Shown: positions 3,163-5,871 of the stretch, piece by piece
How the letters are laid out: each line of letters begins with the position of its first letter
How positions within the stretch are numbered: position 1 is the stretch's first letter
Assembly (NCBI GenBank): GCA_003707115.1
Contig: PPNB01000005.1
Span: 62,001 to 126,000, forward strand
Direction: 5' to 3'
Length of the DNA stretch: 64,000 nucleotides
Origin: Tortispora ganteri
Lineage: Eukaryota
The notes under the pieces: model-generated
What the model was told of the DNA's origin: nothing
What the model saw: the letters and a program-made list of their open reading frames with translations, nothing else
Database searches by the model: none
Position numbers and translations under genes: made by a program

Positions 3163-5871
3163 ATGACAACAGAAAGCAAGAAAAAGCGGCTAGATGATGC
3201 CGACAAAACACCAACAGGATCACCAGCAGCGGACCTTTTGACTCCTGAAGAAGAAACAAATGGTGATGATGGCTATTTCATTCCATTTGACAAGATCGAT
3301 AAACCGTTCCAGGAAGAAAGAGAACTTGTACCTAGCGATCGCCCTGAACTAGGTGATTTGCAGTACATAAAAGCTGAAGACAAAAAACACTTCTCAATAT
3401 TATTTGATAATAATAAAACAAATAGTCAATTATCTAACAGTGAAGCAAGAGAGTTACGTATGGCCAAACTCGTTATCAAAGTGAAGAATGGCTCTCCATC
3501 TGCGCGCAAGACCGCAATGAGACAACTGACAGATAATGCGAGGATGTTCGGACCAGACTCGCTCTTCTCATTGTTATTACCTCTTATCATGGAACCCTCT
3601 GTCTCTGAGCAGGAGCGCCATCTACTGGTCAAACTCATAGGCCGCATACTATACAAGCTAGACGACCTAGTCAGACCGTACACGCACAAAATCCTTGCTG
3701 TTTTGCAGCCACTGCTGCTCGATAACGACAATATAACTAGAACAGAAGTTCGAGAGATTATATCTACACTTTCCAAGGCTGCTGGACTGCCTCATATGAT
3801 ATCTACACTCAGACCCGACATAGACAATGATGATCCACAAGTCAGAGATGCTACAGCGAAAACTCTCGCAATAGTAGCCACATCTCTTGGCCTCGACAAC
3901 GTTTTGCCATTTATAGAAGCTGTTTGCCATTCAAAGAGAAAGTGGGAAGCAAGGTTTACAGGTCTCAAAACAGTGCGCGAAATAACTGTTCTTGTTGGCG
4001 TCGGCGTTCTTCCTTACCTCTCTACGTTGGTAGAGTGTGCTGCTTTCAGCATGCAAGATGAACGCACGCGCCTCAAAGTACTCGCAGTTGACGTTTTATC
4101 GAATCTTGCAGAAACCGCGTCGCCATACGGTATAGAATCTTTTGAGCCCGTACTTAGGCCGCTCTGGCTAGGAATACGCAAACACAGCGGTAGGCCACTT
4201 ACGTCGTTCATCAGATGCGTTGGTAATATAGTTACTTTAATGGACCCAGAGGACGCTGATCACTATGCTAAAAGGGTCATGAACATAGTGGTCCGTGAAT
4301 TTAGCTCACCAGACGAGCAAATGAAACTAGTAGTACTCAAAGTACTCAGACAATGTGTTGCTGCGCAAGGTATTGAAAACCAATATATATTATCTGAAAT
4401 TATGCCTCCTTTTTTCAAAGAATTCTGGACAAGAAGAATGGCTTTAGATGCTAGAAACCGCAATGCTGTCATCGAAACCACAGAAACACTCGCTCTGCGT
4501 GTAGGTGCATCCGCCGTTATAGAGCAATTAGTGGCCGCTTTGAAGAATGAGTCCGAGCCATTTAGGAGAATGGCAGTTCAAGCTATGGACAAAATTATAA
4601 CTAATCAAGGTGGTGCAGAAATACCTGTGCGCATAGATAGCCTCTTGATAGATGGCCTGTTGTACGCATTCCAGCAGCAGACGATAGAAGATCATGTTAT
4701 ACTAAATGGCTTCGGTATAGTTGCGACCACTTTGGGTCTTCGAATGTCTCCATTTATTGACGAAATCTCATCAATAATTTTATGGAGACTGGATAATGCA
4801 TCTCTTACTGTTCGAATACAAGCTGCTGACTTGATATCTAAACTAGCAGCAGTTATTCATGAATGTGAGCGCTTTGATATTCTCAGCAAAATGGGTACCG
4901 TCCTATATGAACAGCTAGGCGAAGAATATCCAGAGATACTTGGCTCTGTTATCAATTCTCTGAATTCGATACTGTTGGCCGTTGGTATAGAAGAAATGAC
5001 CCCACCAGTGTCTGACCTTGTGCCACGAATCACTCCGATCTTGCGAAATAGACATGAAAAGGTGCAAGAGAACTCAATAAAGCTGATTGGAAACGTTGCA
5101 AATGACGGGCCAGAAAGTATATCTGCCAGAGAATGGATGCGGATCTGCTTTGAGCTACTGGAAATGCTAAAGGCACCTCAAAAGGCTATTAGAAGAGCAG
5201 CCAATGACACATTTGGCTATATAGCTCAAGCTATAGGCCCGCAAGATGTGCTTGTTGCACTGATGAACAATCTAAGAGTGCAAGAACGTCAATTGCGTAT
5301 ATGTTCTGCTGTTGCTATTGGTATTGTCGCAGAAACATGTGCGCCGTTCACAGTTCTTCCTGCACTAATGAATGAATACCGCGTTCCTGAAATACACGTT
5401 CAAAATGGTGTTTTAAAAGCTCTTTCATTTATGTTCGAGTATATTGGTGATCTCTCCAAGGATTACGTCTACGCAATTGCACCACTTCTAGAAGATGCAT
5501 TGCTCAATCGCGACAAAGTCCACCGACAAACAGCTGCTACAGCTACGAAGCATTTAGCACTTGGATGTATTGGTCTTGGATGCGAAGATGTGATGCTTCA
5601 TTTACTGAATTTACTTATGCCTAATGTTTTCGAATCATCCCCTCATGTCATTGAGCGTATTTTAGAAGGAATTGATGGAGTTCGTGCGTGCCTTGGACCA
5701 GGTATTATCTTGAATTACACACTTGCAGGTTTGTTTCATCCTGCTCGAAAGGTTAGAACGCCTTACTGGAGTATCTACAATTCAATGTACGTGCAAAGCG
5801 CTGATGCAATGGTTCCATATTATCCTGAGATTGAAGAAATTTCCAGGCCAGAACTACTTGAATTCATTTGA
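3163..5871 (+). CDS. HSH155: U2 snRNP SF3b subunit 1 (Hsh155/SF3B1)
   Basis: HEAT-repeat motifs KVKNGSPSARKTAMRQLTD, ERHLLVKLIGRILYKLDDLVRPY, PYGIESF, ILRNRHEKVQEN, REWMRICFELL, GLFHPARKVR. First ATG is at 3163. Confidence 0.97.
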   Translation: MTTESKKKRLDDADKTPTGSPAADLLTPEEETNGDDGYFIPFDKIDKPFQEERELVPSDRPELGDLQYIKAEDKKHFSILFDNNKTNSQLSNSEARELRMAKLVIKVKNGSPSARKTAMRQLTDNARMFGPDSLFSLLLPLIMEPSVSEQERHLLVKLIGRILYKLDDLVRPYTHKILAVLQPLLLDNDNITRTEVREIISTLSKAAGLPHMISTLRPDIDNDDPQVRDATAKTLAIVATSLGLDNVLPFIEAVCHSKRKWEARFTGLKTVREITVLVGVGVLPYLSTLVECAAFSMQDERTRLKVLAVDVLSNLAETASPYGIESFEPVLRPLWLGIRKHSGRPLTSFIRCVGNIVTLMDPEDADHYAKRVMNIVVREFSSPDEQMKLVVLKVLRQCVAAQGIENQYILSEIMPPFFKEFWTRRMALDARNRNAVIETTETLALRVGASAVIEQLVAALKNESEPFRRMAVQAMDKIITNQGGAEIPVRIDSLLIDGLLYAFQQQTIEDHVILNGFGIVATTLGLRMSPFIDEISSIILWRLDNASLTVRIQAADLISKLAAVIHECERFDILSKMGTVLYEQLGEEYPEILGSVINSLNSILLAVGIEEMTPPVSDLVPRITPILRNRHEKVQENSIKLIGNVANDGPESISAREWMRICFELLEMLKAPQKAIRRAANDTFGYIAQAIGPQDVLVALMNNLRVQERQLRICSAVAIGIVAETCAPFTVLPALMNEYRVPEIHVQNGVLKALSFMFEYIGDLSKDYVYAIAPLLEDALLNRDKVHRQTAATATKHLALGCIGLGCEDVMLHLLNLLMPNVFESSPHVIERILEGIDGVRACLGPGIILNYTLAGLFHPARKVRTPYWSIYNSMYVQSADAMVPYYPEIEEISRPELLEFI

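Follow-up and report, generated by a model that had tools for sequence, protein, structure and literature searches.

SF3B1/Hsh155 of the yeast genus Tortispora: replaced hotspot residues, lost ULMs and a possible natural experiment in branch-site checking

Introduction

SF3B1/Hsh155 is the HEAT-repeat scaffold in the U2 snRNP (small nuclear ribonucleoprotein) and clamps the U2-branch-site helix. The family associates with U2 snRNA and the SF3b partners and is indispensable to pre-spliceosome assembly. The ligand of the pocket on HEAT repeats H4-H7 of SF3B1 is debated, the candidates being the N-terminal region of Prp5/DDX46, SUGP1 or the intron RNA. Here we describe the SF3B1/Hsh155 gene found in 64,000 nucleotides of Tortispora ganteri DNA (contig PPNB01000005.1, positions 62,001 to 126,000 of the forward strand, called the window below). 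In this gene most residues of the pocket, whose hotspot positions are mutated in human blood cancers, have been replaced, and the U2AF-ligand motifs (ULMs) of the N-terminal region are missing.

The systems drawn on here are those of Saccharomyces cerevisiae and human, for which the papers given by PMC number are cited here for particular passages of each. In S. cerevisiae, hsh155 alleles at E291, R294, N295, H331, K335 and D450 affect only reporters with non-consensus branch sites; N295D, H331D and K335N reduce the splicing of such reporters and E291G, H331R and D450G have the opposite effect, while H331D and K335N also reduce Prp5 binding in vitro (PMC5238730, PMC5416834). Consensus introns are unaffected by the hotspot alleles (PMC5416834), and in the passages of this literature covered here we met no tested S. 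cerevisiae allele with phenylalanine at H331. In the pre-A complex, HEAT repeats 1-7 of Hsh155 cross-link to the N-terminal region of Prp5, and it has been proposed that the HEAT domain, by closing on a proper branch helix, releases Prp5 (PMC8357632). For human cells, the two C-terminal tyrosines of SUGP1 have been modelled in the K700/H662/K741 pocket near E622 (PMC10760632), and SUGP1 binding is weakened by hotspot mutations (PMC10760632, PMC11874996). The N-terminal region takes part through its ULMs: the single ULM of Hsh155 (R100/W101) binds the U2AF homology motif of Cus2, and once it is mutated, Cus2 binding is abolished and the ATP-binding function of Prp5 is no longer needed (PMC6633205).

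Within the genus, T. caseinolytica has been assigned a genome of 9.2 Mb with 4657 genes, and 'high numbers of introns' have been noted in it (PMC5499181). Yazhini et al. (2022) reported a native N626D solely in T. caseinolytica and Thecamonas trahens among the SF3b1 homologues surveyed, and found E622D to be native to many yeasts (PMC8785561). The N626D of T. caseinolytica is therefore already published. The passages of that paper covered here and its Table S5 contain no mention of E622P, H662F, Q669R/Q670E, the clustering of the changes, the ULM loss or the long branch, and a full-text search of it for 'H662' gave 0 occurrences. Its SF3b table credits T. caseinolytica with SF3b1, SF3b3 and SF3b14b only; the table is patchy for S. 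cerevisiae strains as well, and we do not use it as a sign of loss.

Results

An intact SF3B1/Hsh155 orthologue

The open reading frame (ORF) at 3163-5871 is an intact, conserved SF3B1/Hsh155 orthologue of Tortispora. In phmmer searches of all chains of the Protein Data Bank (PDB), human SF3B1 was matched in one stretch (query 60-893 against 457-1288, 1092.6 bits) and Hsh155 likewise with a high score (query 23-894 against 87-958, 965.7 bits), which bears out the identity proposed in an earlier note on this DNA. A Pfam scan returned generic HEAT-type families only, and the C-terminal HEAT-repeat superhelix could be aligned from end to end with the solved SF3B1/Hsh155 structures. Identity to solved SF3B1 is 50-60%. 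Among the best 120 of 2215 matches, the closest relative is CANCADRAFT_140918 of T. caseinolytica NRRL Y-17796 (P0002), identical at 851 of 905 positions (94%) and the one protein contributed by that species, followed at 57-61% identity by Lipomyces, Dipodascopsis, Sugiyamaella and many Pezizomycotina. The Tortispora pair nests within Saccharomycotina in a tree inferred from 21 named fungal SF3B1s by a quick maximum-likelihood search (LG+G4), with a value of 99 in the Shimodaira-Hasegawa-like approximate likelihood-ratio test for the 8-row set. Contigs from two DNA runs of two studies agree with the SF3B1 stretch in all but 1 letter.

The ATG of SF3B1 (3163, + strand) lies only 60 bp from ATG 3103 of a divergent ORF at 1103-3103 (- strand), which encodes 666 aa and has no Pfam family. 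The genome is extremely compact, with intergenic gaps down to 12 bp (32366-32378).

Replaced residues at the hotspot positions

Residues are numbered here on a 904-aa version of the protein (P0001) that begins at TTG 3157, two codons upstream of ATG 3163. The alignment to human SF3B1 is ungapped across the hotspot stretch, where query residue i corresponds to human i+395. The earlier note had listed E622P, Y623Q, N626D, H662F, Q669R, Q670E, K700R and G742P as replaced and R625, K666, G740 and D781 as kept, and had placed the H662F codon, TTT, at 3955-3957. Translation and alignment confirmed the observation as a whole, including every one of these statements on the sequence, and K741R and E902Q were found in addition; E592 is retained along with D781. 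T. caseinolytica carries the identical residue at every one of these positions.

The same note had given the motifs D-EYVRN and ARHTGIKIVQQ for both reference proteins. The alignment supports them for human SF3B1, and for Hsh155 the passages of PMC5238730 extend only to the single residues E291, N295, H331, K335 and D450. It had also counted E622, Y623, N626 and H662 as recurrent hotspots; E622, N626 and H662 are such in the literature, and Y623 has 0 occurrences in the review PMC11874996.

Taking eleven hotspot residues from the literature (E592, E622, R625, N626, H662, K666, K700, K741, G742, D781 and E902), we found seven of the 11 altered in Tortispora SF3B1. Six of the eight residues of the H4-H7 pocket (E622, R625, N626, H662, K666, K700, K741 and G742) are altered. 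At the rate of change of conserved sites (15.3%), the binomial tail for 7/11 is 0.0004, a value inflated, like that of the regional test below, because the region was selected by the finding itself. The changes lie, as had been proposed, in the H4-H7 area that is contacted by the N-terminal region of Prp5 (PMC5238730, PMC8357632) and by the C-terminus of SUGP1 (PMC10760632). The shared substitutions are neither chance nor sequencing error, because the same residues occur in T. caseinolytica and the two DNA runs agree.

Rarity among other SF3B1 proteins

The comparison set comprised 221 other SF3B1s, namely the matches listed from the full-length and region searches. R625, N626 and Q670 keep the consensus residue in all 221, E622 in 220, H662 and Q669 in 218 each, Y623 in 210, G742 in 206 and K700 in 203; E902 is E in 212, and K666 is K in 165 and R in the other 56. 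Named yeasts, including the fast-evolving Pachysolen and three Wickerhamomyces species, retain E622, N626, H662, Q669 and Q670, and some of them differ at K700 or G742. The spread of the changes through yeasts had been proposed as a check, and the eight substitutions first listed were absent from the other yeasts sampled, with the qualification that positions 700 and 742 are variable there. Within the genus itself the substitutions are fixed.

The loss of hotspot residues in Tortispora is also out of line with its own overall divergence. In a library of representatives clustered at 50% identity (63 sequences with at least 600 aligned residues), Tortispora SF3B1 is 59% identical to the consensus of the representatives and retains 2 of 8 hotspot residues. 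Of the other representatives, the 24 with an identity of 50% or more to the consensus all retain 3 to 8 of the 8, and retention of two or fewer was otherwise found only at 47.8% identity or less.

Native residues of the disease type or the Tortispora type do occur at these positions elsewhere in the library. P0125, a representative 69% identical to the consensus, has a native H662D together with N626S; phenylalanine at 662 occurs in two representatives (P0140 and P0198) and aspartate at 626 in three (P0146, P0175 and P0198).

Concentration of the changes in H4-H7

Sites conserved in at least 97% of the 221 other SF3B1s were taken as conserved, which gave 354 sites. The window protein is altered at 54 of them, 51 of which also differ in T. 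caseinolytica, 50 with the same residue. Altered sites make up 17 of 64 in human 596-715 as compared to 37 of 290 in the rest of the protein (Fisher p 0.011, odds ratio 2.47), and only 13 of 166 in the C-terminal part (human 876-1299). The same test gave no H4-H7 excess in Pachysolen (6/66 in the region, 36/360 overall), nor in two Wickerhamomyces, Coemansia, Sugiyamaella, Trichomonascus and Lipomyces. When identity to Pyronema was compared by region, Tortispora reached 50% in human 596-715 and 60% overall, whereas Pachysolen reached 74% and 62%; in the other eight fungi compared, this region was at least as conserved as the entire protein. These results support the view that the changes are more concentrated in H4-H7 than overall divergence predicts.

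The C-terminal half is canonical. Residues 681-894 of the Tortispora protein are 75% identical in the by-region comparison, and K1071, R1074 and R1075 (human numbering) are conserved in the phmmer alignment (kapqKaiRRaand against kahkKaiRRatvn). We take these three to be basic residues on that side of the C-terminal half which faces the branch helix and the branch adenosine.

A short N-terminal region from which all ULMs have been lost

The N-terminal region before the HEAT domain is short and contains no tryptophan, the first W being residue 263 in P0001 and 264 in T. caseinolytica. We defined a ULM, after passages of PMC6633205, as a basic residue followed by R-W-D/E, a pattern that is bound by U2AF-homology-motif proteins (Cus2/Tat-SF1, U2AF65) and that is typical of the family and does not define it. 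Since the region has no tryptophan, it has no ULM, and the count of such motifs in the Tortispora N-terminus is 0. In seven other fungi (Lipomyces, Sugiyamaella, Blastobotrys, Wickerhamomyces, Pachysolen, Taphrina and Pyronema) the N-terminal region is 217-468 residues long and in every case contains 2-3 R-W-[DE] motifs of the RKRRWD or KKSRWD type. The extreme N-terminus of the Tortispora protein lines up with the N-terminal methionine of 178 of the 221 other proteins, and an upstream exon is implausible because the next gene is only 60 bp away; we are therefore dealing with a real deletion and not with an error of the gene model. All ULMs have thus been lost in the genus, a loss that is not in the earlier note and that concerns the same Prp5/Cus2 step.

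PF08920, the N-terminal domain of SF3b1 that contains the p14/SF3b6-binding region, gave no match to the Tortispora protein at E<=0.001. It is also missing from T. caseinolytica and from three Wickerhamomyces proteins, and most others among the matches listed have it; because the Wickerhamomyces proteins lack it too, its absence is not peculiar to the genus. Among 56 representatives, having no ULM-like motif goes with fewer conserved hotspots (Spearman 0.39, p 0.003), a correlation confounded by overall divergence, shared ancestry and possibly incomplete N-termini.

Tempo, selection and the comparison with Brr2

In the SF3B1 tree, the Tortispora stem (0.88 changes per site) is the longest branch, and the two tips are short (0.047 and 0.026). 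The window also holds an intact Brr2/SNRNP200 gene, which is 92% identical to that of T. caseinolytica and at most 46% identical to other full-length relatives, apart from one local match of 54% covering just 19% of the query. Run X3 has a contig, from a related organism, that covers the SF3B1 gene; it differs in 230 letters and carries, close to the 5' end, an insertion of 9 bases that matches the 3-residue insertion of T. caseinolytica. Of 225 differing places 40 were listed, all within 3131-3456, and 25 of the 34 listed differences inside the coding sequence fall at third codon positions. These third-position differences and the 94% protein identity indicate that purifying selection acts on the present sequence. 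The ratio of nonsynonymous to synonymous substitution rates may be near 0.1, which is a rough estimate and not a computed value.

Partners, introns and other genes in the window

An Rfam scan of the window at gathering thresholds gave 0 matches, hence there is no U2 snRNA in it. The G-patch ORF at 61374-62117 (- strand, 247 aa) was considered as a SUGP1-like partner and rejected, as it is PXR1 (PinX1-related, E 4e-35, PDB 8RDY chain B; SUGP1 reached E 0.8). TACTAAC occurs 9 times in the window, where 6.7 occurrences are expected, and a count of at least 9 arose in 25 of 100 shuffles. A pattern scan for a 5' splice site, branch site and AG yielded 747 candidates, 96 of them with CTAAC; most lay within ORFs and none was convincing. 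In the gaps 33150-34700 and 11560-12480 no obvious split gene was seen by eye in the stop-to-stop ORF lists, no homology or family search having been made there.

Unusually long gaps for such a compact window are found at 33199-34664 (1.4 kb), which has no ORF above 89 aa, and at 52723-53815 (1.1 kb). At 63690-63812 (- strand), the start ATG of ORF 62260-63810 lies within GTATGA and is followed by TACTAAC (63718-63724) and by an AG 29 nt further on, and upstream the frame has no stop before the window ends; the arrangement may mark an in-frame intron of 123 nt or be coincidental. A single uninterrupted ORF at 38965-48270 (- strand) encodes a bridge-like lipid-transfer protein of the Csf1/BLTP1 type with 3101 aa. 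The coordinates of the features discussed are collected in Table 1.

Table 1. Positions of the SF3B1/Hsh155 features and of the comparison gene in the window
Feature	Residues	Position (nt)	Strand	Remarks
SF3B1/Hsh155 coding sequence		3163..5871	+	902 aa from ATG 3163, uninterrupted; ORF lists, phmmer
Short N-terminal region	about 98 aa before HEAT domain	3163..3456	+	without tryptophan or ULM; motif comparison
H4-H7 area with excess change	201-320 (human 596-715)	3757..4116	+	conserved-site test, identity to Pyronema
RPDIDNDDPQVRD	219-231 (human 614-626)	3811..3849	+	E622P, Y623Q, N626D; R625 kept
WEARFTGLKTVREI	263-276 (human 658-671)	3943..3984	+	H662F, Q669R, Q670E; K666 kept
Codon TTT	F267	3955-3957	+	H662F; translation and alignment to human SF3B1
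Codon CGC	R305	4069..4071	+	K700R; alignment to human SF3B1
Codons GGT AGG CCA	G-R-P	4189..4197	+	G740 kept, K741R, G742P; CCA is 4195-4197
E902Q	Q507	4675..4677	+	coordinates derived from the residue number, not from the codon
Brr2/SNRNP200		13771-20160	+	intact, 2129 aa; Sec63, DEAD, PWI and plug domains

Discussion

Based on the replaced pocket residues, their concentration and the loss of every ULM, we consider that the surface on which early-acting U2 factors dock has probably been rewired in Tortispora. In the stem lineage of the genus, the N-terminal half of SF3B1 would have undergone heavy change, in which the ULM-bearing region was lost and the H4-H7 'hotspot pocket' was re-shaped, the C-terminal half, which holds the branch helix and the branch adenosine, would have remained canonical, and the new state would thereafter have been held by purifying selection. 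The factors concerned would be the N-terminal region of Prp5 on HEAT repeats 1-7, Cus2/Tat-SF1 on the ULM and, in the pocket, possibly a G-patch cofactor, and these partners would either have co-evolved or one of them would have been lost. The ULM (Cus2), HEAT repeats 1-7 (Prp5) and the pocket would all serve the same step, in which U2 becomes committed to the branch site in an ATP-dependent way, and the checkpoint coupling branch-site quality to Prp5 release would then use contacts other than those in S. cerevisiae or humans. Most simply, we infer, this module underwent a single rewiring in the ancestor of the genus and remained stable thereafter. The direction of any change in fidelity is not predictable from the sequence.

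A further-reaching version of this proposal holds that the first ATP-dependent splicing checkpoint has been rebuilt, with an SF3B1 that, lacking a ULM, would be unable to hold Cus2/Tat-SF1, and with a re-shaped pocket that binds a co-evolved Prp5 N-terminus differently or has no ligand at all. We put it forward tentatively and regard it as unlikely. If it were true, branch-site proofreading would follow different rules in a yeast reported as rich in introns (PMC5499181), and the genus would be a natural, viable 'multi-hotspot-mutant' spliceosome in which to ask what the pocket is for.

Several results weigh against a rewired docking surface. The count of seven altered hotspots among 11 is not significant at the difference rate of all sites (41%; p 0.11), the H4-H7 excess is modest at p 0.011 and the region was picked post hoc, through the finding itself. 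Both K700R and K741R are conservative changes, K666, K700, K741 and G742 are already variable in fungi, and very divergent SF3B1s commonly vary natively at hotspot positions. The Tortispora stem of Brr2 is equally long (0.91 in a 16-taxon tree, against 0.88 for SF3B1), so SF3B1 is not alone in its long stem and part of the change belongs to an acceleration of the whole lineage or of the spliceosome; as Brr2, the sole comparison gene, is itself spliceosomal, these two kinds of acceleration are inseparable here.

Much of this would be expected if the gene had simply evolved fast, together with the whole genome or the spliceosome, and if the hotspot changes were drift with local compensation and without any particular effect on branch sites or partners. 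Such generic fast evolution is the most serious of the alternatives and a possible one, though in our judgement it is rather doubtful. Besides the equal stems and the natural variability of the hotspots in very divergent proteins, it accounts for the 37 of 290 conserved sites altered outside the hot region and for the mostly conservative nature of the shared changes (R/K, V/I, L/M), and the S. cerevisiae hotspot alleles, after all, spare consensus introns (PMC5416834). Yet Pachysolen, which has diverged as far overall (62% as compared to 60%), remains 74% identical in H4-H7 and keeps E622, N626, H662, Q669 and Q670. Drift also fits poorly with radical changes at invariant positions (E to P, H to F, N to D and Q to E). 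The H4-H7 area is 96% identical between the two Tortispora species (residues 205-395 as query; all others at most 59% among the best 120 of 1302 proteins at E<=0.001) and is therefore constrained today. The simultaneous loss of all ULMs implicates the same functional step. The concentration in H4-H7 and the ULM loss are the parts of the change that are specific to SF3B1.

A second alternative is that a partner, such as Cus2/Tat-SF1 or a SUGP1-like G-patch protein, was lost, and that relaxed constraint then let both the ULM region and the pocket decay. The complete absence of ULMs and the confounded tendency of ULM-less representatives to keep fewer hotspots would agree with it, but a pocket region conserved at 96% between two species is unlike ongoing decay, and we consider this explanation improbable. 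It is more improbable still that the gene is a divergent extra copy with a canonical SF3B1 elsewhere, an assembly artefact or a pseudogene, given the single T. caseinolytica protein among the matches listed, a tree position within Saccharomycotina as expected of an orthologue, the equal divergence of Brr2, and an intact, conserved ORF confirmed by contigs of two DNA runs.

The rewiring of the docking surface thus remains our preferred reading. The earlier note had suggested that the lineage may have re-tuned branch-point fidelity and a co-evolved Prp5 and so be a natural model of hotspot-type SF3B1, which is supported in part. The gene identity, the real and genus-fixed changes, their location in H4-H7 and their concentration there all stand, and the interpretation is qualified by the long Brr2 stem, by E622D being native to many yeasts and by the N626D published before. 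Tortispora SF3B1 may be a natural experiment in branch-site checking. The pocket is kept almost without exception across fungi, fast-evolving yeasts included, and a healthy lineage in which seven of 11 hotspots are replaced and every ULM has been dropped implies that this surface can be rebuilt. The Prp5, Cus2 and U2 of Tortispora are the matched partners in which to look for compensating changes, and they offer a direct route to the conserved ligand of the pocket. If the changes are neutral, they would be informative on how much of the pocket constitutive splicing needs.

As compared to the named systems, the T. caseinolytica protein (P0002) is the nearest: it shares the short N-terminus, the hotspot residues and the lack of tryptophan before 264, and differs by 51 substitutions and the 3-residue insertion near the N-terminus. 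The HEAT domain of human SF3B1 (PDB 5IFE chain C) aligns end to end with that of Tortispora, and R625, K666, G740, D781, E592, K1071, R1074 and R1075 are shared. The two differ by E622P, Y623Q, N626D, H662F, Q669R, Q670E, K700R, K741R, G742P and E902Q in Tortispora, and the human N-terminal region of about 450 aa with five ULMs (PMC6633205) contrasts with one of about 100 aa with none. Hsh155 of S. cerevisiae (PDB 5GM6 chain G) has one ULM, R100/W101 (PMC6633205), where Tortispora SF3B1 has none, and it keeps E291, N295, H331, K335 and D450 (PMC5238730), of which Tortispora alters three of the five. At one of them the two systems meet, as the native aspartate of Tortispora at N626 is the tested S. 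cerevisiae allele hsh155-N295D.

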